Of a DNA stretch of 64,000 nucleotides, positions 33,389-46,404 are shown one piece after another. Source of the DNA: Desulfobulbaceae bacterium UBA5121 (GTDB lineage: Bacteria; Desulfobacterota; Desulfobulbia; Desulfobulbales; UBA5123); the NCBI GenBank assembly GCA_002414225.1, contig DHYV01000019.1, positions 54,907 through 118,906 of the forward strand. Reading direction: 5' to 3'. How positions within the stretch are numbered: the stretch's first letter is position 1; every line of letters begins with the position of its first letter. Position numbers and translations under genes: made by a program. The notes under the pieces were generated by a model. The model was given only the letters and a program-made list of their open reading frames with translations. It ran no database searches and was not told where the DNA came from.

Positions 33389-36300
33389 ATGACCGACAAC
33401 ACCGCCTTTGTCATCGAATCCGACGCCCTCAAGGCCAACCTGCTGGAGACGGCGGTCACCGAGGTGACCATCGATCCCGCCTTCATGCTTCTGACCGATA
33501 TAGTCAGGGATTACAAGGGGATACTCAATAGCCTGGAAGAGCTGCTCTATGAGGTGAGTCACCCCTTTCACAACTGGAACCTGATCCTGCCCAAGCTCCG
33601 CGCCTTTGTGCTCAAGAACGGCGGCCACTTCCGGCGCCATGCCAAGGGGCCCGCGGCAGTTCCCCTCCTGGCCGGGATCTTTTTTTCCGCCATCGCCGAA
33701 TCGCGCAAGAACGAAGCCCTCATGGGGCAAGCCATCGAGGGGCTGCTTGCCTACATCGACAATCTGGTGGGCTCTCTCGATCCGGCCACCCTGAATGATT
33801 ACGAGGCCCCCTTGCGCTACTGCGGCGAGCGGTTGGGCGAACTCGATGATCCGACCCTGCTCCACGTGGTGCAGGGCCATCACCCCATGAAGAAGATCGC
33901 AAGCCGCCTGGTTTCCTTTGCCCAGCGGCAGTCCGAGGCGACCGGGGTCTACGACCTGCGTCCCCTGGGGCGGCTCCTGAAGCGGATTTTCGCCCTCAAC
34001 TACCGCTACTGGCTCGCCGAGGAAGACCCGCTGCCCTGGCTTAACCAGCAGTGCGCTGAGATGTGCGACGGCTGGGAGTCCGGCAAGTTTTTTGCCGCCG
34101 TTTCCCATGCGCGGCTTCGGGAACACCAGGCGGCGCTCGAAGCCATCGACATCGAGGCCAATCCGGCGGAGGTGGTCAAGATCCTCGAACTCCCCTCCCA
34201 CATGGATATCGTCCGCCTCTACAAGGAGATCCCGGCCCAACTGGTGGCGGTGAAGTCCGTGGCGCCCGAGGCGGCCGGCGGCGACCGCTTCGCCGAGAAC
34301 AGAAAACTCCTCTTCCTCTTCCGGATCATGGATACCGCCGGGCTTGCCCTGATTCACGAGGAGAGTTTGCGGGAGATCAACCGAAGTCTGGTCCACTTGA
34401 TCCGCCAGCAGACCTTCGAGGAGATCGAGAGCTTCCTGCTCACCACCCTGCAGCTCCTGAAAGAGAACGTCAAGAAGTACCCCCACACCTCGCTGCAGTG
34501 CATCCAGGTGCTGGGCTCCGAGGTCTTCGACCGCGGCAACAGCCGGCTGGTGGAGGCCTTTCTCTGGGAGACGGTGCGCTTCGGCTTCCAGTACGCCAAC
34601 GTCGCCGGCGTCGACGAGGACTGGCAGCCGCTCGCCAACCCCGCCCACCTCGCCAACATCCGGGTCTGGTTGAATCTGATCATGCAGGAGCCCAAGTGGT
34701 GCTCCACCCTGTTTTCGGCCCTGATCATCAACCTCAAGCTCTCCGGAACCTGCATCAAAGATACCGACCTCTTCCAGCGCGACATCACCCGGTTGTTGAA
34801 TCACCCCATTGAGCCGGTCTACAATCTGGTTAAGCAGTTCGCGAAACTCCTGCCGGTCTTCTTCAACGAGATCGGCGCCGAGGGGGTGCTGCGCGACGTC
34901 TCCACCGAACTTGACGAGATCCATCGCCGCAAGGACCGGCTTATCCACTTTCTGCGCAAGCAGAGCCACGTGGAGAGCAGCAACCTCATCGTCGGCTTCA
35001 TCCAGGCGATTCTCGAGTTCTGGCACACCCTGGACAAGGAGGGGCTCACTTCTTTTCTGCCGCCCGAGGTTCTTCTCCAGGTGCAGCCGCAAGGCCCCTT
35101 CGTGGATGCTCTCCACCAGCTCATGGTGCGGCTCTTTGCCGAAAAGGATATCGAGCGGGTGGAAGACCTCCTCGACTGGGAGGACCATCGCCTTGCCCTG
35201 TGGCTCGACGGCCAGAAGGATCTGGCCGAGAACGAAACCCGGCGCTTCCGCCTCCTGGTCAGCATGTACCGGCTCCTCTACCAGAAGTACAACCTGGGCT
35301 TCCAGGAGATCCGCCGCCAGCTCGAACAGGCGGTGAACAGCGGTTTCCCGGAGATGGAGCAGCTCTTGGCCGATCTGGAGATCTGCGACACCTTCGAGTG
35401 TCTGGACGCCCTTCTCGGCCAGCTCGAGGCGCTCAAGAAAACCATCCTGAGCCCGGAAAAGTTCGAGGCCAAGGAGGACATCTACTACAAGCGCCACATC
35501 GCCGTGGACATCCCCTCGGTCTACGGTCGCTACCGCGAGAGGAAGTTCGACGCCCTGGGGCTTACCTTCCGGCTCGAAAACCTGGCCAATATCTATCTTG
35601 AAAAGCTGCCCAAGAAGGTGAACCTCTCCTTCATTACCCGGGCCACCTTCATTCGGATCATCAAGTGCCTCCGTTTCTACCTGCGAGCGCTTCAGATCGA
35701 CGGCATCACCAGCCGCCAGCTTGAAACCTACATGTCGCTGCTGTCGGGGTCGCTGGGGATCAAGCGGTTTTCCTACACCCAGTATCTCGATATCTTCAGG
35801 GGGCTCTCCGAGGGGGTGAAGACGGTGATCTACGCCTACTACACCAATATCCACGAGAACAACCTGTCGATTATCATCCCCCAGATCGGCGCCGGCAACC
35901 TGCTCACCAAGTACCGCGGCCTCTGGGACGATGACGTGGACAGTTCGGTGCATCGTCTCTCGGAGTCATTCCTGCGCGACCTCATTTCCACCACCTTCGG
36001 CCTCCAGCATCTCGACAACTTCATTTCCCGGATCTATCAGACCCTGGAGAGCCAGAAGGAACTGCTCGACGAGGAGAGCCTGGATCTTTTGATGACCTAT
36101 AACCCGGAGCGGGCGATCAGCTTCCTTCATCAGCGCAATCCCCGGGCCAACAACCTTATCCTGCTGGGCAACAAGGGCTACAACCTCACCCTGCTCGCCG
36201 GTGACAACAAGCCAGTGCCGCCGGGCTTCATCGTCACCACCGAGATCTTCCGCTGCTGGCCGGTGGTGAAGAGTTTTGCCAAGGCGCGGGAGGAGTTCAT

Positions 36301-37645
36301 GGTTCAACTCCGCCACTCGCTGAGCGCGCTTGAAAAGCTCACCGGCCGCAACTACGGCGATCCGGCCTGGCCGCTGCTGCTTTCGGTGCGGAGTGGCGCC
36401 GCGGTTTCCATGCCCGGCATGATGGCCACCATCCACAACGTGGGCCTCAACCAGGAGATTGTCGAGGAGTTTGCCGCTGCCACCGGCCAGGATTACCTGG
36501 CCTGGGACAACTACCGGCGCTTCCTGCAGTCCTGGGCAATGACCCGCGGGGTGGCTCGCGAGGAGTTCCAGGCCCTGATGGACGCGGCCAAGGCCCGCCA
36601 CGGAGTCAAGGTTAAGCGGCAGTTCACGCCCGCGCAGATGAAGGAACTGGCCCTTGAGTATCAGCGCACCATCCGTAGCGTGGGGATCGGCATTCCGGAC
36701 GACCCGTGGCTGCAGCTGGTGGGGGCGGTGGAGATGGTCATCGATTCCTGGGATACGGTCAAGACCCGCGACTACCGGGCGTTGATGGATATGTCTGAGG
36801 CGTGGGGCACGGCGGTGATCGTCCAGACCATGGTGTTCGGCAACCAGGGGACGCTGTCGGGCAGCGGCGTGCTCTTCACCGCTCACCCCTACCGCAAGGT
36901 GCGGCGGGTGGCGCTGTGGGGCGATTACGCTCCCGGCGACCAGGGCGAGGACATCGTCAGCGGCCTGGTCACCACCTATCCCATTTCGGTGGAACAGGCC
37001 GAAATCGACGGCCGTTCCAAGGAGAACAGCCTGGAGGTGCGTTTCCCCGCCATTTACCAGGAGCTTCTCGCCCTGGCCCGCGAGCTGGTCTACGACAAGG
37101 GATGGAACCCCCAGGAGATCGAGTTTACCTTCGAGGGCGAGGGCGTGAAGGATCTCTATATCCTCCAGACCCGGGACATGATCACCATCAAGAAGGACGA
37201 GAGCTTCGACGTGCTCGCCGATTCGGTGGATATCGCCGCCCACCAGCTGAGCAAGTGCATCGGGGTGAGCGGCGGGGCGCTCGCCGGCCGGGCAGTGTTC
37301 ACCGCTGATAACATCCGCCGGCTCCGCAAGGAAGACCCGGACACCCCGCTGATTCTCATCCGCCAGGACACGGTGCCCGAGGACATCAAGGAGATCTCCA
37401 TGGCCGACGGGCTCCTCACCGCCCGGGGCGGCCAGACTTCGCATGCCTCGGTGGTGGCGATCCGGCTTGAGAAGACCTGTCTGGTGGGCTGCAACAGCCT
37501 CCGGGTTTATGAGGCCGAGGAGCGGGCCGAGATCAACGGCCAGGAAATCCGTTTCGGTGACCCAATCACCATCGACGGCCGCAAGGGGTTGCTGCTCAAG
37601 GGTATGCACCCGGTGCGGCGGGAAGTGCATATCTTACCTATCTAA
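33389..37645 (+). CDS. large PPDK/PEP-synthase-related protein: unassigned helical N-terminal region + nucleotide-binding domain + phosphohistidine swivel domain, with no PEP/pyruvate TIM barrel
   Basis: 1418 aa. From about residue 920: NKGYNLTLL, SVRSGAAVSMPGMMATIHNVGLN, WGTAVIVQTMVFGN, QGEDIVSG, and TARGGQTSHASVV (His codon 37442-37444). The protein ends about 65 aa after the catalytic His. Confidence 0.9.
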   Translation: MTDNTAFVIESDALKANLLETAVTEVTIDPAFMLLTDIVRDYKGILNSLEELLYEVSHPFHNWNLILPKLRAFVLKNGGHFRRHAKGPAAVPLLAGIFFSAIAESRKNEALMGQAIEGLLAYIDNLVGSLDPATLNDYEAPLRYCGERLGELDDPTLLHVVQGHHPMKKIASRLVSFAQRQSEATGVYDLRPLGRLLKRIFALNYRYWLAEEDPLPWLNQQCAEMCDGWESGKFFAAVSHARLREHQAALEAIDIEANPAEVVKILELPSHMDIVRLYKEIPAQLVAVKSVAPEAAGGDRFAENRKLLFLFRIMDTAGLALIHEESLREINRSLVHLIRQQTFEEIESFLLTTLQLLKENVKKYPHTSLQCIQVLGSEVFDRGNSRLVEAFLWETVRFGFQYANVAGVDEDWQPLANPAHLANIRVWLNLIMQEPKWCSTLFSALIINLKLSGTCIKDTDLFQRDITRLLNHPIEPVYNLVKQFAKLLPVFFNEIGAEGVLRDVSTELDEIHRRKDRLIHFLRKQSHVESSNLIVGFIQAILEFWHTLDKEGLTSFLPPEVLLQVQPQGPFVDALHQLMVRLFAEKDIERVEDLLDWEDHRLALWLDGQKDLAENETRRFRLLVSMYRLLYQKYNLGFQEIRRQLEQAVNSGFPEMEQLLADLEICDTFECLDALLGQLEALKKTILSPEKFEAKEDIYYKRHIAVDIPSVYGRYRERKFDALGLTFRLENLANIYLEKLPKKVNLSFITRATFIRIIKCLRFYLRALQIDGITSRQLETYMSLLSGSLGIKRFSYTQYLDIFRGLSEGVKTVIYAYYTNIHENNLSIIIPQIGAGNLLTKYRGLWDDDVDSSVHRLSESFLRDLISTTFGLQHLDNFISRIYQTLESQKELLDEESLDLLMTYNPERAISFLHQRNPRANNLILLGNKGYNLTLLAGDNKPVPPGFIVTTEIFRCWPVVKSFAKAREEFMVQLRHSLSALEKLTGRNYGDPAWPLLLSVRSGAAVSMPGMMATIHNVGLNQEIVEEFAAATGQDYLAWDNYRRFLQSWAMTRGVAREEFQALMDAAKARHGVKVKRQFTPAQMKELALEYQRTIRSVGIGIPDDPWLQLVGAVEMVIDSWDTVKTRDYRALMDMSEAWGTAVIVQTMVFGNQGTLSGSGVLFTAHPYRKVRRVALWGDYAPGDQGEDIVSGLVTTYPISVEQAEIDGRSKENSLEVRFPAIYQELLALARELVYDKGWNPQEIEFTFEGEGVKDLYILQTRDMITIKKDESFDVLADSVDIAAHQLSKCIGVSGGALAGRAVFTADNIRRLRKEDPDTPLILIRQDTVPEDIKEISMADGLLTARGGQTSHASVVAIRLEKTCLVGCNSLRVYEAEERAEINGQEIRFGDPITIDGRKGLLLKGMHPVRREVHILPI

Positions 37646-39077: not shown

Positions 39078-39800
39078 TCATTTGTCCCGGAGAAGGGGCT
39101 GCTTCTGCAATCGCTTGTAATAGAGGTTTTGCCCGTAGAGAACGGATACCGGATTATGGCCGGTAACCCGGTCCTTTACCACCATGGTGGTAACCGGAGC
39201 ATCCGAGTATCTGGTGAACAAAATGTCATGGCCCACGCACAATCCGACAATAATATTAAGGTCGGTATTGGCCTCGTTCAGAAGCCTGGCCTGAGCCACT
39301 GGATTGCAGGCCGGCTCAAAGGTGTTGGGGCGAACCTTTTCTTCCTCCGTGAGTCCAAGTTCCAACTTGTCGATACTGCCTGATTTGCAGCAGACGCTGA
39401 CCGTCTTGAAACCCTGGGCATCCAAAATGGCTGCCAGGCGGTTTGTCTCATCCAGCAAGCCGATACAGGTTGCGATGCCAATCTTCTTGTATTTCATGAA
39501 CTTGGCAAAGGCGATGGTGTCTTCCACTCTGGTCCAGCGGGCATTGATTGCATCACTGCCTGCGGCGGACTGGTAGCCGAGACCTTCCACCTGGGCCGCG
39601 ACCTTGGCTATACGGGCATCTTCCGTGTTCTCTTTGTAGAGTTCAAATGATTCCTTTATAATCTCGGCATGGTTTCTCGTCGGGCAGTTGCCCGGTTTGG
39701 CCGGTTTGTTTTTCGGGTCAACGCTCCAGCAATTGGTGCTTTCGCTTTTTCGCCAGGCGGCGCTGCATTTGCTACAGCTGAAATCATTTTGCTTGCTCAT
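39078..39800 (-). CDS. DUF1847-like metal-binding (Cys-rich) protein
   Basis: ATG at 39800 after GGGGGAGA. CSKC, CW, CP N-terminal cysteines, plus GIATCIGL and VCCKSG blocks. The family name is from memory only. Confidence 0.75.
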   Translation of the reverse strand: MSKQNDFSCSKCSAAWRKSESTNCWSVDPKNKPAKPGNCPTRNHAEIIKESFELYKENTEDARIAKVAAQVEGLGYQSAAGSDAINARWTRVEDTIAFAKFMKYKKIGIATCIGLLDETNRLAAILDAQGFKTVSVCCKSGSIDKLELGLTEEEKVRPNTFEPACNPVAQARLLNEANTDLNIIVGLCVGHDILFTRYSDAPVTTMVVKDRVTGHNPVSVLYGQNLYYKRLQKQPLLRDK

Positions 39801-39987
39801 GGTTAATCTCCCCCCCTTGCCCATCTCCTTTCGGAAAGGCTGGTTCCACATTTTTCACCATGTTCATGGGAAATGCGGCTGATGGCTCGACTCGAGGTGA
39901 TTTCGGTTCCGGAATTGACAGCTTAACCATTGGCAACTATCATTACAAATGAATACTTCGGATGTGAGCTATCACTGTTGGTGATTT

Positions 39988-40842
39988 GTGGAGATTAGCG
40001 ACCTCAGAATATTTTTAGCCGTTGCCCAACAGGGCAGCATTTCACGGGCAGCAGAGGAATTGCACTACGTCCAGTCCAATGTCACGGCGCGGATCAAGCA
40101 GCTGGAGGAGCGGCTGGGCACCGTTCTCTTCCACCGGAAAAGCAGGGGGGTGGTCATGACCTCCTCCGGGCAGCTCCTTTTGGACTATGCGCAACGAATT
40201 ATCCGATTGACCAAGGAAGCCGAGGAGGTGATCCGCGACCAAGGAGAACCGAAAGGCAGGCTTTTGATCGGGTCCATGGAAACGACCGCGGCTGTGCGGC
40301 TGCCTCCACTTCTGGCCAGCTATCATCGTTTGTATCCGAAAGTCGAGTTGAGCCTGGTCACCGGTTCGTCGGCAGAGTTGTTAAAACGGCTGCTTGATTA
40401 TCAAATCGATGGGGCTCTGGTGGCGGGAGAAATTTCTCAAGAAGCATTGCTCGTCGAGAAGGCCCATGAAGAGGAAATGGTTCTCGTGACCCCCCCGGAT
40501 GTTGATGACCCGGGACAACTGGCAAATTTCAAGATCCTTGTTCTGCGTGCCGACTGCGCTTGCCGGGCACAACTGGAGAAGTGGCTGCATAGCACCGGGC
40601 GACTGCCGTATCAAATTATTGAAATCGGCTCAATTGAGGGAATTATCGGCTGCGTTGCCGCCGGCATGGGGGTTGGTTTCATGCCGCGCTCGGTTGTCGA
40701 CAAAGCACACATTCGCAAAATTTGCGCGCTGCACTCCTTGCCCGATCATTTTGGCACCCTGACAACCTGGTTTGTTCGTCACCACACGGATAACACAAGC
40801 AGGGCCATGCAGGCTTTTAGAGATCTGGTCGTGGCTGAATAA
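39988..40842 (+). CDS. LysR-family transcriptional regulator
   Basis: GTG start. HTH block LRIFLAVAQQGSISRAAEELHYVQSNVTARIKQLEE and a typical LysR substrate-binding region. Divergent from the DUF1847-like gene. Confidence 0.9.
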   Translation: MEISDLRIFLAVAQQGSISRAAEELHYVQSNVTARIKQLEERLGTVLFHRKSRGVVMTSSGQLLLDYAQRIIRLTKEAEEVIRDQGEPKGRLLIGSMETTAAVRLPPLLASYHRLYPKVELSLVTGSSAELLKRLLDYQIDGALVAGEISQEALLVEKAHEEEMVLVTPPDVDDPGQLANFKILVLRADCACRAQLEKWLHSTGRLPYQIIEIGSIEGIIGCVAAGMGVGFMPRSVVDKAHIRKICALHSLPDHFGTLTTWFVRHHTDNTSRAMQAFRDLVVAE

Positions 40843-41037: not shown

Positions 41038-41859
41038 TCAGGCAATCCCGTTTATCCCCACCCCATCCAGCGCCGCCAGCCGGTCGATGAGCAGTTCGAT
41101 ATCGCGGGGGCCGATGATGATGTTGCCGTGCTGGGGGGCGATGGTTTGGATGGGCAGCCCCCGGATCTGGTTCATGGCGTGGTGGAGCGCCTTGTCGCTG
41201 GTCATCACCTTGCGGTGGAAGTCGTATACGGCCTGGATGGGGCAGTAGGGGCGGTGCTCGGGGCAGGACGAGATATCGTTGCAGCTGTAACAGCGCGAGC
41301 CGAGGGAGAAGAAGATATCCTCGGCGTGGTAGTAGAAACTGCCGAAGAGGTCGCTGCTGAACAGGGTGCCGGTGGCCTCATCGTAGGTGACGAAACTGCC
41401 GGGGCTGTGGGCGTAAGGGGTGTTGATGAAGCGCAGCCGGCGGTTGTTGAGCAGAACGGCATTGTCCTGCTGGCCGATGTCTTCGATGAGGGGATAGTGG
41501 TCCTTGTGAATGTAATAGGAGATGAAGAGGTTGTTGGGCTGCGTCGACAGAATCCTGAGTTCGGGGTTTTTGCAGATGTCGATCAGGTTGGACATGGAGC
41601 CGCAGAGGTCGGGATCGTAATGCTGATAGATTAGGGCGGTGATGTTTGCCGGGTCGATACCGGCCTGGAGGATCTTCATCATCACATTGGCGAAGTCGGC
41701 GCGGCTGCCGCCGTCGATGAGCACCGCCCGGTCGCCGTCGACGACCAGATAGGGGTTGCAGTGGAGGCTGGCATCCACCTCGTGGCTGCCGACCCAGTAG
41801 ATGCCGTCGGCAACCGTTACCGGGTGGTCGATCTGCGCGGGTTCCATCATGACTGACAT
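41038..41859 (-). CDS. MBL-fold protein (flavodiiron/ODP-like or phosphodiesterase-like), Cys-rich C-terminal part
   Basis: MSVMMEPAQ... start at 41859, or 41850 with an ATGA overlap on the cyclase stop. VLIDGG, a divergent metal motif QHYDPD, TPYAHSPG, and CYSCNDISSCPEHRPYC. The upstream part of track ORF 41038..42405 is out-of-frame read-through of the cyclase gene. Confidence 0.8.
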   Translation of the reverse strand: MSVMMEPAQIDHPVTVADGIYWVGSHEVDASLHCNPYLVVDGDRAVLIDGGSRADFANVMMKILQAGIDPANITALIYQHYDPDLCGSMSNLIDICKNPELRILSTQPNNLFISYYIHKDHYPLIEDIGQQDNAVLLNNRRLRFINTPYAHSPGSFVTYDEATGTLFSSDLFGSFYYHAEDIFFSLGSRCYSCNDISSCPEHRPYCPIQAVYDFHRKVMTSDKALHHAMNQIRGLPIQTIAPQHGNIIIGPRDIELLIDRLAALDGVGINGIA

Positions 41860-42662
41860 ACCTCTGCGGGGTGTTGGCGTTCGTCGGCCACGAGATAGGC
41901 GACCATGGCCGGCTTGTTCTTGAGGGTGATGGCCCCTCGTTTTTCGAAGGCGAAAGCGTGTTCGGCCTCTCGATAGGTTGCCTGGGAGACGTTGACCCGG
42001 CCGGGGAGTCCCGCCGACTCGAAGCGGGAGGCGATGTTGACGTCGTCGCCGAAGACGTCGAACTGCATGCGTTCCGTGCCGACCACTCCGGCCATCACCT
42101 GGCCGGTATGGATGCCCAGCCGCATTGCCAGGGGGTGCTCCCGGCCGCGGTTGAATGCGCGGATGAATTCCTGCATGGCCAGACCGGCCCGGATCGCCAG
42201 GACCGGATGAGCTGCCACCTCCTCGGGGGCGCCGAACACCGCCATGTAGGAGTCGCCGATGGTCTTGACCTTGGTGCCGCCGGCGTCGGCCACCAGTCGG
42301 TCGAAGCCGCTGAAGATCGTGTCGAGGGTTTCGACGAGCTGTTCGGGCGGAACCTTTTCGGCCAGCGCGGTGAAGCCGACGAAGTCGGTGAAGAGGATGG
42401 TGCACTGATAGCGGCGCGGCGTAAAACGGCTGCGGTACTTGATCTCATCGGCCACCCCGACCGGCAAGGTGTTCTTGAGGAGGCTGTCCACTCGTTTTTC
42501 GAGCCGGACGTAGGATCTGAGCAGCTCGCTGAGCAGGCTTTTCTGGAGGGCGTCGTCCCGGATCAGCGACAGGGAGTCGAGATAGGTCAAGAGAAGGGCG
42601 TTGACCGAGTCCCGGCTGGCCTCCGCGCCTTGATAGAGCGTGAGCAGGGTATGGGTTTCCAT
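41847..42662 (-). CDS. class III adenylate/guanylate cyclase (adenylate-type residues), short helical N-terminus
   Basis: 271 aa with FTDFVGFT, VKTIGDSYMAVFG (Lys as in adenylyl cyclases), FDVFGDDVNIASRFES. AAGGA RBS. Confidence 0.9.
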   Translation of the reverse strand: METHTLLTLYQGAEASRDSVNALLLTYLDSLSLIRDDALQKSLLSELLRSYVRLEKRVDSLLKNTLPVGVADEIKYRSRFTPRRYQCTILFTDFVGFTALAEKVPPEQLVETLDTIFSGFDRLVADAGGTKVKTIGDSYMAVFGAPEEVAAHPVLAIRAGLAMQEFIRAFNRGREHPLAMRLGIHTGQVMAGVVGTERMQFDVFGDDVNIASRFESAGLPGRVNVSQATYREAEHAFAFEKRGAITLKNKPAMVAYLVADERQHPAEVCQS

Positions 42663-42696
42663 CGGGTATCCTTGGCAGCGAGAGAGGGGGGGCGGG

Positions 42697-43158
42697 TCAG
42701 CCGATGGCGTCCTTGACCGCCTGGGCTCTTGCGAGGTGAATTTCGGTTTCCTTGGCCAGTTGTTTCAACACGGAGCGCGCCTTCTCCGTCATCCCGTCGA
42801 AGTGGTTGAAGATGTTTTTTTCGAGCAGCGAGCGCTCCAGGTCAACGGTGGCGGCTACGGCATGGGACAGGGTGAGCTGGTTGTCCTCCGCCTTGGCGAG
42901 GATCTGCTCGACATATTCAATGAAGCTGCTCACCGTGTAGGTTTTGATCTTCCCCTCCTGGAAGAGCACCACTCCCTTGTCGGCGGCCTCATGGAGCTGC
43001 TGCAGCCAGCTGGCGTGCTTGTGTTCCTCCTTGGCAAGGGTGTTCCAGAGTTCCGCGTGCTGCGGAAACTGCGCGGCGAAAAGGGAATAGAGCTTGCAAA
43101 GAAGTTGTTCCTGACGGACCAGGGAGTCGAGCATCTTCTTTTGGTAGGGTTTGAGCAT
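42697..43158 (-). CDS. ferritin-like four-helix-bundle protein (possible di-iron)
   Basis: 153 aa, all-helical text, with AKEEHKH (ExxH) and a second acidic/His block KETEIH that is imperfect. 34-nt gap to the cyclase gene. Confidence 0.65.
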   Translation of the reverse strand: MLKPYQKKMLDSLVRQEQLLCKLYSLFAAQFPQHAELWNTLAKEEHKHASWLQQLHEAADKGVVLFQEGKIKTYTVSSFIEYVEQILAKAEDNQLTLSHAVAATVDLERSLLEKNIFNHFDGMTEKARSVLKQLAKETEIHLARAQAVKDAIG

Positions 43159-43373
43159 GGTTTATGCGCCTCGTCCTCGGCGTGGAGAAAATTAATCACT
43201 GGCAAACATTTAAGCCTAATTTTGGGGCGGCGGCAAGTGAGTGTTTCTGTCAGGAAGGCGGTTTTCGCCGGCGCTTCGTGTATTGCATTCCTGTCCCCCG
43301 CTGCGCTACTCTTTTTGGGAGAGATTCGGCAAACCGGGGCGTTGGTCGCGCTGGCTGCGGCAAGGGAGGGCTG

Positions 43374-44621: not shown

Positions 44622-45941
44622 ATGGCGATACGGGTGGTGCACTATCTGAACCAGTTCTTCGGCGGCCTGGGCGGCGAGGAGCAGGCCGGAGTCGGTCCCT
44701 CCCTGGTGGCCGGCGCCAAGGGGCCCGGCATCCTGCTGGAACGGCTCCACCCGGATCTCTTGGTGGTGGCCACGGTGGTCTGCGGCGACAACGCCCTGGC
44801 CGAGCGTCCCGAAGCCATGGTGGCCGAGATCCTCGACCTGCTGGCGCCTTTGTTTGCCGCCGGTCAGGAGGAGCGGCCGCAGCTGCTCGTCGCCGGCCCC
44901 GCCTTTAACGCCGGCCGGTACGGGCTCGCCTGCGGCGCGGTCTGTCAGGCGGTGGCCGAGCGGTACGGGATACCGGTGGTCACCGCCATGGCCCCTGAAA
45001 ACCCCGGGGTCGAGCAGTACCGCCACGCGGTGCCCATGGTCGCCACCGCCCTGGACGTGGGCGGCATGGCGGCGGCGCTTGGCGGCATGGCCGCGCTGGG
45101 CGGGAAGCTTGTCAAAGGTGTGGAGGTACTGCCGGAACGGGACGGCTATCTGCCCCAGGGGTTGCGCAGAAACGTCTGGGCGGCCGAAAGCGGGGCGCAG
45201 CGGGCGGTGGCCATGCTGCTCGCCAAGCTGCATGGCGAGCCCTTTGCCACCGAGTACGCCATGCCGGTCTTCGACCGGGTGGAGCCGGCCCCGGCCATTG
45301 CCGACCTGAGCCGCGCCACCCTGGCCCTGGTCACCTCGGGCGGCATCGTCCCCCGGGGCAACCCGGACCGCATCGAGGCGGCCAACGCCCAGAAGTACGG
45401 CGCCTATTCGCTCACCGGCCTGGCGGCCTTAAGCCCGGCAAGCCATCAGACCGCCCACGGCGGCTATGACCCCACCTACGCCAACGACGACCCCAACCGG
45501 GTGCTGCCCCTGGACGCGGTGCGGGAACTCGAGGCAACGGGCCGCATCGGCCGCCTCCATGAAACCTACTTTGCCACCGTGGGCAACGCCACCTCGGTGG
45601 CCAACGCCCGCCGTTTCGGCCAGGAGATCGCTCACCGGCTGCTGTCGGCCCGGGTGCAGGCGGTGATCCTCACCTCCACCTGAGGTACCTGCACTCGTTG
45701 CGGGGCAACGATGGTCAAGGAGATCGAACGGGCCGGGATCACGGTGGTGCACTGCTGCTCCATCGTTCCCATCTCGCTCACCGTGGGCGCCAACCGCATC
45801 GTGCCCACCGTCGCCATTCCCCACCCCTTCGGCGACCCGGCCAAGACGGTTGCCGAGGAGCGGGCGCTGCGGAGGCAGCTGGTGGAGCGGGCCCTCCAGG
45901 CCCTGGCCACCCCAGTGAGCGGCCAGCAGGTTTTTTCCTGA
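44622..45941 (+). CDS. grdB: glycine/sarcosine/betaine reductase selenoprotein B (GrdB/F/H-like); in-frame UGA at 45681-45683 read as selenocysteine
   Basis: N-terminus MAIRVVHYLNQFFGGLGGEEQA. Track ORFs 44622..45683 and 45711..45941 are in the same frame. Read-through gives TST-U-GTCTRCGATMVKEIERAGITVVHCCSIVPISLTVGANRIVP (UxxCxxC). Confidence 0.85.
45695..45711 (+). promoter_or_regulatory. SECIS-like hairpin downstream of the grdB UGA
   Basis: Perfect stem tcgttgc / gcaacga with a GGG loop, starting 11 nt after the UGA. Confidence 0.5.
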
Positions 45942-45948
45942 AATTTCC

Positions 45949-46404
45949 CTATTCTTCCCGCTTCTCCCCCAGGGTCTTGAGGATGGCGGCCAGGGCCTCT
46001 TCCTCCAACTCCAGCTCGTAGATGGCCATCTGTTCCTCCCACACCGGGGCCGGGATTTCTCCTTTCAGCTCCATGATGTGGTAGGTGGCGAGCCCCAGTC
46101 CGACCCCGGCCAGCGGCCCGGCAAAGCTCGGGTCGCCGCTGCGGAAGGTGGTGGCCATGATGGCCAGGGCGCTGGGCTGGTTGATGCCGGTCACCACCAG
46201 CAGTTCTTGGTTGCCGTACCGTTCGGCAAGGTTCTTGACCTCTTCCTGCTCCGTAAAACTTACGGCGCCGGCCGCGGTTCAGACAAAGCAGGCGGTGGCC
46301 TCGTAGAGGATCTCGCAGCCCGCCGCTCGCAGACAGGCGGCGATGGTGGTCCCGGAGATATCATCCCGTTCGCCAAAGACGATGGCCTTCTTGCCCTGCA
46401 GCAT
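45949..46404 (-). CDS. grdA: glycine reductase complex selenoprotein A; in-frame UGA (plus-strand 46279-46281) read as Sec42
   Basis: Manual translation from ATG 46404 (AAGGGAGG RBS): MLQGKKAIVFGERDDISGTTIAACLRAAGCEILYEATACFV-U-TAAGAVSF...GDPSFAGPLAGVGLGL.... This carries the CxxU motif of GrdA. The track shows only the part after the UGA (45949..46197). Confidence 0.85.
46251..46265 (-). promoter_or_regulatory. SECIS-like hairpin downstream of the grdA UGA
   Basis: Minus-strand ccgtaa-gtt-ttacgg, starting 13 nt after the UGA. Confidence 0.4.

Follow-up and report, generated by a model that had tools for sequence, protein, structure and literature searches.

In the RsbT-RsbU system, a PP2C phosphatase recruits a separate regulator through its helical N-terminal domain, and gas sensors of the H-NOX/HnoK type are stand-alone proteins encoded in operons. 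The study that paired the ODPs of T. denticola and T. maritima with a sensor-less chemoreceptor is reportedly that of Muok et al. (2019, PNAS), and the solved ODP structures are PDB 6qrq, 6qwo, 6qnm and 6r9n. The iron- and O2-binding ODP is described as an auxiliary sensory subunit in direct contact with its cognate receptors (PMC6978683). According to accounts of T. denticola (TDE2498/TDE2496) and T. maritima, ODP binds Fe(II) and O2 and works as an auxiliary subunit on a sensor-less chemoreceptor (PMC6978683, PMC7666581, PMC7319448). ODPs are also described as sharing operons with signal-transduction proteins or as being fused to them, and the supplement to the TREND case study lists neighbourhoods and fusions with Pkinase, MCP, GGDEF/EAL, START and HD (PMC7319448). 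That list names no partner that is a class III cyclase, a SpoIIE/PP2C phosphatase or a HisKA kinase, and the case study describes neither a Cys-rich ODP subfamily nor a partner module shared among outputs (PMC7319448).

The locus described here, in a window of 64,000 nt (the whole stretch of DNA that was analysed), likewise joins an ODP to a signalling output, and we consider it likely that its ODP is the trans-acting sensor subunit of an adenylate-type cyclase, the two proteins forming a sensor-effector unit to which a third protein is an optional addition. Through such a pair, anaerobic bacteria probably report oxygen, iron or redox state by way of cAMP. The features of the locus are as follows.

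43159-43373, strand not applicable: divergent intergenic region between the ferritin-like gene and a glycine-reductase (grdB-type) operon, defined by gene calls; presumed promoter region of the triad
42697-43158, minus strand: ferritin-like (erythrin-type) gene, 153 aa; accessory gene of the cyclase-ODP pair
42663-42696, minus strand: 34-nt spacer between the ferritin-like and cyclase genes, with an AAGGA Shine-Dalgarno-like motif inside (sequence reading)
41847-42662, minus strand: class III adenylate-type cyclase gene, 271 aa, without a sensor domain
42477-42608, minus strand: core of the cyclase's N-terminal helical "ODP-partner module", aa 19-62 (HMM match)
41889-42410, minus strand: cyclase catalytic domain, aa 85-258 (Pfam envelope and catalytic residues)
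41038-41850, minus strand: gene for the ODP-family MBL-fold di-iron protein of the Cys-rich subfamily, 270 aa; proposed trans-acting sensor subunit
41608-41622, minus strand: ODP metal motif H77-Y-D79-P-D81 (HMMER alignments, ligand conservation)
41242-41292, minus strand: C187-x2-C190-x5-C196-x6-C203 insertion of the ODP, specific to the subfamily; putative second metal or Fe-S site

The three genes follow one another on the minus strand in the order ferritin-like, cyclase, ODP, as read from the open reading frame list and the sequence. A preliminary description of this DNA had reported three tightly linked same-strand genes with a 34-nt gap and an ATGA overlap, and this arrangement is borne out: the ATG of the ODP gene (41850-41848) overlaps the TGA of the cyclase gene (41849-41847). 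The motifs quoted there (VKTIGD, FDVFGD, QHYDPD, CYSC...C...C and ExxH) are likewise all present. By sequence reading, Shine-Dalgarno-like GAGG/AAGGA motifs precede all three start codons, and the same three genes appear in independent gene calls on contig DKAZ01000059.1 (GCA_002448905.1). A promoter scan of the triad returned no sigma-70 consensus, and a terminator scan of the triad returned nothing usable, the spacer at 42663-42696 containing no terminator-like site on the gene strand. The other neighbours in the window comprise LysR, DUF1847, a glycine reductase cluster, AlaDH and a PPDK-like gene. These were considered as parts of the system and rejected, since they are not kept beside the cyclase-ODP pair in other loci.

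The MBL-fold protein is a member of the ODP family and not an odd hydrolase, as indicated by profile, structural and motif comparisons. It matches the full-length ODP model PF19583 (positions 1-194) with an E value of 1e-51 and 176 bits against a cutoff of 27.2, the only other Pfam domain found in its 270 aa being Lactamase_B (5e-12), and a PDB profile search matches it to ODP 6qrq (E 9e-19). For the AF2 model (pLDDT 86, pTM 0.88), which has the MBL alpha-beta/beta-alpha fold, the best Foldseek match is T. maritima ODP 6qwo (TM 0.77/0.82). Ranks 1-6 are all occupied by ODP 6qwo/6qrq (TM 0.71-0.77 query-normalised, 0.77-0.82 target-normalised), with the T. maritima and T. denticola ODPs first and flavodiiron cores after them; sequence identity to the solved ODPs is about 21%. 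The metal motif had been regarded as divergent, but it is the normal one for the family: HYDPD aligns with THQDPDV of the solved ODP 6qrq in HMMER alignments, in which 1ycf was also aligned. All 141 ODPs compared (60 + 21 + 60 sequences, the last 60 being classical MCP-linked ODPs) keep the residues H77, D79, D81, H148, D167 and H241. As in other ODPs, Fe(II) at this site would be expected to bind O2 as a mu-peroxo adduct.

An MBL-fold di-iron domain is shared with the flavodiiron proteins (FprA, ROO, flavorubredoxin NorV), and the Moorella FprA ligands H81/E83/D85/H86...H148...D167...H228 align with positions of the window ODP. In the latter, however, Asp stands in the place of Glu and Leu in that of His as fourth motif residue, such that the motif reads H-Y-D-P-D-L, with L82 in place of the last His of the flavodiiron HxExDH motif. 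The window ODP also lacks a flavodoxin domain, its profile matches to flavodiiron proteins covering only their N-terminal half, and thus it has no electron input for O2 or NO reduction. Its predicted role is in signalling and not, as for the flavodiiron proteins, in detoxification.

Judged by its sequence, the cyclase is a class III enzyme of the adenylate type, with cAMP as the predicted product. All six catalytic residues are present in one chain and invariant in 56 cyclase orthologues: the metal-binding aspartates D93 and D137, the transition-state pair N209 and R213, and the adenine-specifying pair K133 and D202. The match to Guanylate_cyc PF00211 (E 1e-52) covers aa 85-258 only. The cyclase has no sensor domain of its own, its extra-catalytic part consisting solely of an N-terminal helical module. 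The preliminary description had seen only a helical stretch of about 85 aa with no recognisable sensor there, but the N-terminus is not featureless, as it contains a conserved module.

Conservation of the pair was assessed in the source contig and in 80 loci of other genomes (81 in all). The cyclase gene lies directly upstream of the ODP gene on the same strand in 60 of the 81; within these 60 pairs the genes overlap in 24 and are separated by at most 30 nt in a further 24 (48/60 together). Because this adjacency recurs in 60/81 loci, the linkage is far beyond chance. Independent gene calls confirm the pair in the isolate Desulfatirhabdium butyrativorans and in a JGI metagenome. At least 60 genomes carry it, three cultured isolates among them (available isolates are D. 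butyrativorans DSM 18734, Desulforhopalus vacuolatus DSM 9700 and Desulfocicer vacuolatum DSM 3385), and its hosts include strict anaerobes of the Desulfobulbales, Desulfobacterales, Syntrophales and Riflebacteria. A literature search combining ODP with adenylate cyclase found nothing.

Cyclases are one of several outputs found beside these ODPs. In sister Cys-rich ODPs, the gene that follows encodes a sensor-less SpoIIE, HisKA-HATPase_c or GGDEF protein, at spacings of -56 to +22 nt, and the ODP phylogeny follows partner type. A scan of 20 long ODP proteins covered natural fusions, which include three of ODP to Guanylate_cyc (P0352, P0328 and P0377) as well as ODP-HK, ODP-SpoIIE, ODP-GGDEF and MCP-ODP proteins. 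One Cys-rich fusion, P0253, passes from the C-terminus of its ODP part directly into helix 2 of the partner module and then the H-box.

This helical N-terminal module, of about 60 aa (about 60-75 aa in the cyclase), is common to the cyclase, SpoIIE, HK and GGDEF partners of Cys-rich ODPs. An HMM built exclusively from the N-termini of non-cyclase partners, and searched within the ODP loci, matches 56 of the 60 cyclase N-termini (E 7.5e-11 to 7e-4); beyond the cyclases it weakly matches two other ORFs only, and it matches none of the reversed control sequences. The window cyclase is one of the weak matches (E 3.7e-4, aa 19-62), and it is the sole match within the 64-kb window. A Pfam search with the module retrieved no family even at E<=10. 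The MCP partners of classical ODPs (L084-L086) lack the module, with a best E value of 23, which indicates that among ODP partners it is specific to those of the Cys-rich subfamily and that the studied ODP-MCP interaction is not simply transferable to the cyclase. Alternatively, the module could have come down with the neighbourhood as a generic helix for dimerisation or signalling.

The preliminary description had offered as one hypothesis that both metalloproteins flanking the cyclase act on it in trans as sensors. For the MBL-fold protein this proposal is well supported by its ODP family membership, its tight coupling to the cyclase, the fusions found elsewhere and the module shared by the partners of its relatives, whereas support is weaker for the ferritin-like protein. 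In the mechanism that we favour, the cyclase would act as a homodimeric class III adenylate cyclase whose module comprises a first helix and then a long signalling helix continuing into the catalytic domain. The ODP would dock on this module, and the state of its metal centre (di-iron loaded or apo, reduced or O2-bound, possibly together with the state of a second, Cys4 site) would alter the helical stalk and thereby switch cAMP synthesis. In strict anaerobes, O2 exposure, iron status or redox state would in this way be passed on through cAMP. The ferritin-like protein, which in some genomes gives way to a hemerythrin or is joined by one, would probably tune the sensor's iron or O2 state or protect it, as an accessory rather than an obligatory third subunit. 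In this scheme we infer that the two proteins bind each other, which signal is sensed, in which direction it regulates the cyclase, and what the Cys4 site and the ferritin-like protein do; the gene structure, family memberships, conservation of ligands and catalytic residues, conserved coupling, common partner module and natural fusions were observed directly.

The proposed unit resembles the classical ODP systems in several respects. Both ODPs belong to the same Pfam family, share the fold and the six metal ligands, and are stand-alone proteins of about 250-270 aa; in both cases the gene adjoins that of a sensor-less signalling protein, consistent with the same auxiliary, trans-acting sensor logic. 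The output differs, as the partner in the window is a class III adenylate cyclase with cAMP as its predicted product, while the classical ODP output is the control of CheA. The partner gene precedes the ODP gene in the window, whereas the ODP gene precedes the MCP gene in the classical loci examined (L084-L086, n=3). The window partner presumably docks through its dedicated N-terminal module, which classical MCP partners do not have. As in the TREND list, ODPs are joined here to diverse signal-transduction outputs, either as operon partners or as fused domains. By analogy, the RsbT-RsbU and H-NOX systems also have a separate small protein that regulates a sensor-less output enzyme, although there is no sequence relationship to them and the window sensor is a non-haem di-iron MBL-fold protein. 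Whereas the ODP concept has so far been shown experimentally only for chemotaxis, the locus would extend it to second-messenger synthesis, and it offers, for one widespread group, a testable answer to the question of how sensor-less class III cyclases are controlled. To our knowledge, hardly any work has addressed cAMP signalling in the strictly anaerobic Desulfobacterota and Syntrophia, which have many such cyclases.

The window ODP sits in a subfamily marked by an invariant CxxCx5Cx6C insertion that is absent from classical ODPs. The four residues C187, C190, C196 and C203 are conserved in 81/81 subfamily ODPs and deleted in 60/60 classical MCP-linked ODPs; this insertion is modelled by AF2 with moderate confidence (pLDDT about 75-84). 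Two further positions bring the number of extra conserved cysteines to six: C31 is Cys in every aligned subfamily member (one sequence has a gap), C83 is Cys in all but one of the 81, and the classical ODPs have Cys at neither position. The relevant input may consequently differ from O2 or Fe(II) at the di-iron site. It is possible, albeit doubtful, that the primary sensor is not the di-iron centre but the Cys4 site, acting either as a labile Fe-S cluster or, with C31 and C83, as a thiol/Zn switch. An Fe-S cluster would be labile to O2, NO and ROS, and the architecture of the pair would then be the same with a different signal. This reading draws on the subfamily-specific invariance of the cysteines and on the spacing of the first three, which is that of the [4Fe-4S] ligands in FNR and WhiB. 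The di-iron ligands, however, are also invariant, and hence that site is under selection as well; moreover, four loop cysteines would equally fit a structural Zn site. The invariant Cys4 insertion provides an experimental handle and may add a second redox- or gas-sensing centre.

We tentatively raise a broader idea, in which the Cys-rich ODPs would be a sensor family of their own with two centres (a di-iron site and a Cys4 site of Fe-S or thiol type) that plug in trans into at least four outputs (class III adenylate cyclase, PP2C/SpoIIE, histidine kinase and GGDEF) through an undescribed N-terminal docking/signalling-helix domain of about 60 aa. If this is true, the Cys-rich ODPs would give anaerobes a general third-party module for O2, iron or redox input, and their cyclase branch would represent the first cAMP pathway regulated by O2 through non-haem iron. 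As a second experimental handle, the shared N-terminal module would mark the output enzymes that listen to an ODP and, if confirmed, would make sensor-effector wiring predictable from sequence.

Conservation of the whole triad, raised as a check in the preliminary description, holds for the cyclase-ODP pair but extends to the ferritin-like gene in only about 60% of cyclase-type loci (about 37/60), where it is a frequent third member; it is absent from all 19 loci with other outputs. The gene is accessory to cyclase-type pairs only. A true three-protein complex, with the ferritin-like protein as the, or a second, obligatory regulatory subunit, seems to us unlikely. Its specific association with cyclase-type pairs would fit such a complex, as would the fact that proximity is kept among loci in which order and strand vary, and hemerythrin, another di-iron bundle, fills the same upstream slot in L040, L048 and L077. 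The putative di-metal site (E17, E45xxH48, D106/E108/E113 and T138xxH141, plus Y24) is also well preserved: nine residues do not vary among 30 homologues (16-75% identity), and E17, E45xxH48, E108/E113 and H141 are among the invariant positions, the second motif being T138xxH141 with a variable acidic residue at 137. (A word-based search gave 10 homologues; the family was assembled from the neighbourhood loci.) Against an obligatory subunit, about 40% of cyclase-type loci lack the gene within 3.5 kb, it often lies on the opposite strand and is thus not co-transcribed with the pair there, and none of the 20 long ODP proteins scanned is fused to it.

The other hypothesis of the preliminary description, a make-and-break pair in which the MBL-fold protein is a cyclic-nucleotide phosphodiesterase degrading the cAMP of the cyclase, fares worse and is in our view very improbable. 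MBL-fold phosphodiesterases for cyclic nucleotides (class II PDEs) do exist, and tight operon linkage would also fit an enzyme pair. The protein nevertheless has no HxHxDH motif, the second His being D79 and the His of DH being L82, and carries the ODP ligand set instead. It matches neither PDEase_II at E<=0.01 nor another hydrolase family, only ODP and the generic Lactamase_B, and its closest structures are O2-binding ODPs and flavodiiron cores. A phosphodiesterase would also leave unexplained the SpoIIE (PP2C), HK and GGDEF pairings of the subfamily and its HK and MCP fusions.

A Pycsar-like anti-phage module, in which the cyclase would make a pyrimidine cyclic nucleotide and its neighbours would be effectors, can be set aside as extremely improbable, for although PADLOC PycC models match the cyclase (best E 4.6e-20), this is a cross-match through the shared class III fold that is far weaker than the PF00211 match, the K133/D202 pair is of the purine type and invariant, PADLOC models match neither of the neighbours, there is no effector of the TIR or transmembrane kind, and the neighbourhood is of housekeeping character and not island-like.

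Returning to the ferritin-like protein as an accessory of the sensor-cyclase pair, its Pfam match is to Rubrerythrin PF02915 (E 1.5e-6), and a PDB profile search retrieved symerythrin and TM1526 with very weak similarity (E about 1e-4). The AF2 model (pLDDT 90) has helices at 4-30, 32-60, 73-91, 97-113 and 125-152. Foldseek gave weak matches to it (best E 3e-3, TM up to 0.73), all of them ferritin-like: MJ0754, DPS-like, aldehyde-deformylating oxygenase (ADO) and TM1526. With the erythrin-type proteins (symerythrin 3qhb, TM1526 1vjx, MJ0754 3q4n, sulerythrin and rubrerythrin) it shares a four-helix-bundle di-metal carboxylate scaffold, the pattern E...ExxH...E...xxxH and a conserved Tyr. It differs from them in that the second ExxH is TxxH and in that the chain ends at helix D with no rubredoxin-like C-terminal Cys4 domain. 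Also distinctive are extra carboxylates in helix C and the specific genomic association with cyclase-ODP pairs.

The locus comprises three linked genes, whose boundaries were established from the ORF list and the sequence:

42697-43158, minus strand, ferritin-like protein of 153 aa
41847-42662, minus strand, cyclase of 271 aa
41038-41850, minus strand, MBL-fold protein of 270 aa, assigned below to the ODP family (di-iron proteins that bind oxygen)

A gap of 34 nt separates the first two genes, and the ATG of the MBL-fold gene (41850-41848) overlaps the cyclase TGA (41849-41847) in an ATGA. A GAGG or AAGGA motif lies ahead of each of the three starts, and an independent set of gene calls for the source contig (GCA_002448905.1, DKAZ01000059.1) contains the same three genes. 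The arrangement reported in the preliminary description is confirmed, and every motif it cited is found in the sequences. A sigma-70 consensus scan found no promoter for the triad.

Just downstream of the ODP gene, a Cys-rich DUF1847 protein (39078-39851, minus strand) and a LysR regulator (39988-40842, plus strand) are divergently encoded. Selenoproteins of glycine/sarcosine/betaine reductase, of GrdB type (44622-45941, plus strand) and GrdA type (45949-46404, minus strand), each have an in-frame TGA where the canonical selenocysteine lies ('LTST*GTCTRCG' and 'CFV*TAAG', respectively), and each is therefore broken into two pieces by ORF finders and in the deposited annotation. None of these neighbors (LysR, DUF1847, or the glycine reductase genes) is conserved beside the cyclase-ODP pair in the loci of other genomes. 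An unusually long protein of 1418 aa with PPDK_N and PEP-utilizers domains is encoded at 33389-37645 (plus strand); its N-terminal region of ~900 aa has no Pfam family in the source's gene table.

The cyclase matches PF00211 (E 1e-52), with the match restricted to residues 85-258. Across 56 orthologues, the metal aspartates D93 and D137, the adenine-specifying pair K133/D202, and the transition-state pair N209/R213 are all invariant; because of this, we predict that the protein is catalytically competent as a homodimeric adenylate cyclase.

The MBL-fold protein matches PF19583 ('ODP family beta lactamase') with E 1e-51; among solved structures its closest relatives, at E 9e-19, are the ODPs of T. 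maritima and T. denticola. A structure search with its AlphaFold model (pLDDT 86, pTM 0.88) likewise returned the T. maritima and T. denticola ODPs first (best hit the T. maritima ODP, TM 0.77/0.82 when normalized to query/target), followed by flavodiiron cores, and every feature of ODP-family membership that could be tested was found. Its QHYDPD motif, previously described as divergent, lines up with THQDPDV in a solved ODP and H-x-E-x-D-H in Moorella FprA, and H77, D79, D81, H148, D167, and H241 are invariant across 141 ODPs of three kinds. Judged from these alignments, the motif is therefore the norm of the family and no oddity.

An ODP alignment scan using one genome per species yielded 374 relatives, from which the best 80 loci were retrieved. 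Among these and the source contig, 60 of 81 loci have, directly upstream of the ODP gene on the same strand, an orthologue of the cyclase (E 1e-76 to 1e-109). In 24 loci the cyclase stop overlaps the ODP start, and in 24 more the two lie within 30 nt of each other. The pair occurs in Desulfobulbales, Desulfobacterales, Syntrophales, Syntrophobacterales, Syntrophorhabdaceae, Riflebacteria/Ozemobacteraceae, and a few otherwise-labelled MAGs, and includes three cultured isolates (loci L004, L017, and L087).

In a sister clade of ODPs (47-52% identical), the gene right after the ODP encodes a different output: a SpoIIE/PP2C phosphatase at 12-13 loci, a short HisKA-HATPase_c kinase at three, or a GGDEF cyclase at four, with starts at -56 to +22 nt relative to the ODP stop. 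These partners and the adenylate cyclase have no classical sensor, at most a PAS domain, and all share a similar N-terminal helical stretch of ~60 aa, roughly ..LLEYRAxExDxxlNxxLLKELvxKYsxaExxLxxLN.., which is covered by no model in a Pfam search. An HMM of this module, built from 17 non-cyclase partners alone and run against 4983 ORFs from ODP loci, matched 56 of 60 cyclases at the N-terminus (E 7.5e-11 to 7e-4), including residues 19-62 of the cyclase studied here (E 3.7e-4); its other matches were two unrelated ORFs, both weak, and reversed cyclase sequences gave none. The module is confined to the cyclase within the 64-kb window and is absent from the chemoreceptor (MCP) partners of classical ODPs at three loci (L084-L086). 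In a neighbor-joining tree, ODP phylogeny tracks partner type.

The characterized ODP is an auxiliary sensory subunit that binds iron and oxygen and directly contacts a sensor-less receptor (PMC6978683, PMC7666581), and ODPs are reported to occur in operons with signal-transduction proteins or fused to them (PMC7319448). The most economical reading of the architecture is that the ODP probably acts in trans as the adenylate cyclase's sensor subunit, docking on its N-terminal module and thereby altering the helical stalk that connects to the catalytic dimer. By analogy, the system may work as the ODP-chemoreceptor pair does; it differs in its predicted output (cAMP), in gene order, in the Cys-rich insertion of the ODP, and in the dedicated module carried by partners of Cys-rich ODPs. 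The published ODP neighborhood list consulted here names Pkinase, MCP, GGDEF/EAL, START, and HD, and class III cyclases, SpoIIE, and HisKA partners are absent from it (PMC7319448). A literature search returned nothing linking an ODP to an adenylate cyclase.

The di-iron site of the ODP might respond to O2 or Fe(II) as the signal, a proposal we hold at slightly short of even. Its main rival, or a refinement of it, is a second center formed by the Cys4 insertion, which we consider possible and rather doubtful. The insertion (C187-x2-C190-x5-C196-x6-C203) is invariant in 81 of 81 subfamily members and deleted from all 60 classical ODPs examined; C31, which is Cys in every aligned Cys-rich member, and C83, in 80 of 81, are subfamily-specific too. 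The spacing C-x2-C-x5-C of its first three cysteines is that of the [4Fe-4S] ligands of FNR and WhiB.

One of two hypotheses in the preliminary description had cast both flanking metalloproteins of the triad as trans-acting sensors. For the ODP, family membership and conserved coupling to the cyclase sustain this view; the ferritin-like gene is a frequent accessory, found in ~37 of the 60 cyclase-type loci (upstream, downstream, or convergent) and in none of 19 loci with other outputs. The triad is better seen as a conserved pair that a putative di-iron accessory often joins, and an obligatory third subunit is improbable. The Rubrerythrin match of the 153-aa protein in Pfam is marginal, and a profile search led to symerythrin and TM1526. 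It is modeled with confidence (pLDDT 90) as a helical bundle whose Foldseek matches, weak as they are (best E 3e-3), are without exception ferritin-like proteins, and E17, Y24, E45, H48, D106, E108, E113, T138, and H141 are kept in 30 homologues with identity down to 16%. We assign it as a ferritin-like, putatively di-metal protein whose second motif is an atypical TxxH in place of ExxH. Rubrerythrin proper was rejected because the rubredoxin domain is absent. A hemerythrin (PF01814) lies beside the pair at five loci, L036, L040, L048 (2164-2640), L049, and L077, and also at L087 (5524-5931). In L040, L048, and L077 it holds the upstream slot of the ferritin-like gene and looks like a non-homologous replacement of that bundle. 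The likeliest role of either protein is that of an accessory, adjusting iron or O2 at the sensor.

The earlier suggestion that the MBL-fold protein is a phosphodiesterase found no support, and we judge it very probably wrong; a Pycsar-type defense role, equally unsupported, is more remote still.

Among 1.84 billion representative proteins, 1869 ODP relatives were recovered, and many of these are fusions. Examples join an ODP to Guanylate_cyc (P0352, P0328, and P0377), and further types are ODP-HK, ODP-SpoIIE, ODP-GGDEF(-EAL), REC-ODP, and MCP-ODP. P0253, a fusion of the Cys-rich kind, passes from the ODP C-terminus directly into module helix 2 and then the kinase H-box. Since helix 1 is missing, this sequence suggests that helix 1 may serve for docking in trans and helix 2 for signaling. 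In two other proteins, P0265 (284 aa) and P0378 (237 aa), a cyclase N-terminus, consisting of the partner module and the start of the catalytic domain, is followed directly by the C-terminal half of an ODP of the Cys-rich type; these may be genuine deletion fusions or chimeras created in assembly. A GGDEF or GGDEF-EAL gene adjoins the classical ODP-MCP pair in three unrelated genomes (L084, 5692-6978; L085, 5692-7362; L086, 1930-3978), which hints that even classical ODPs may feed c-di-GMP signaling.
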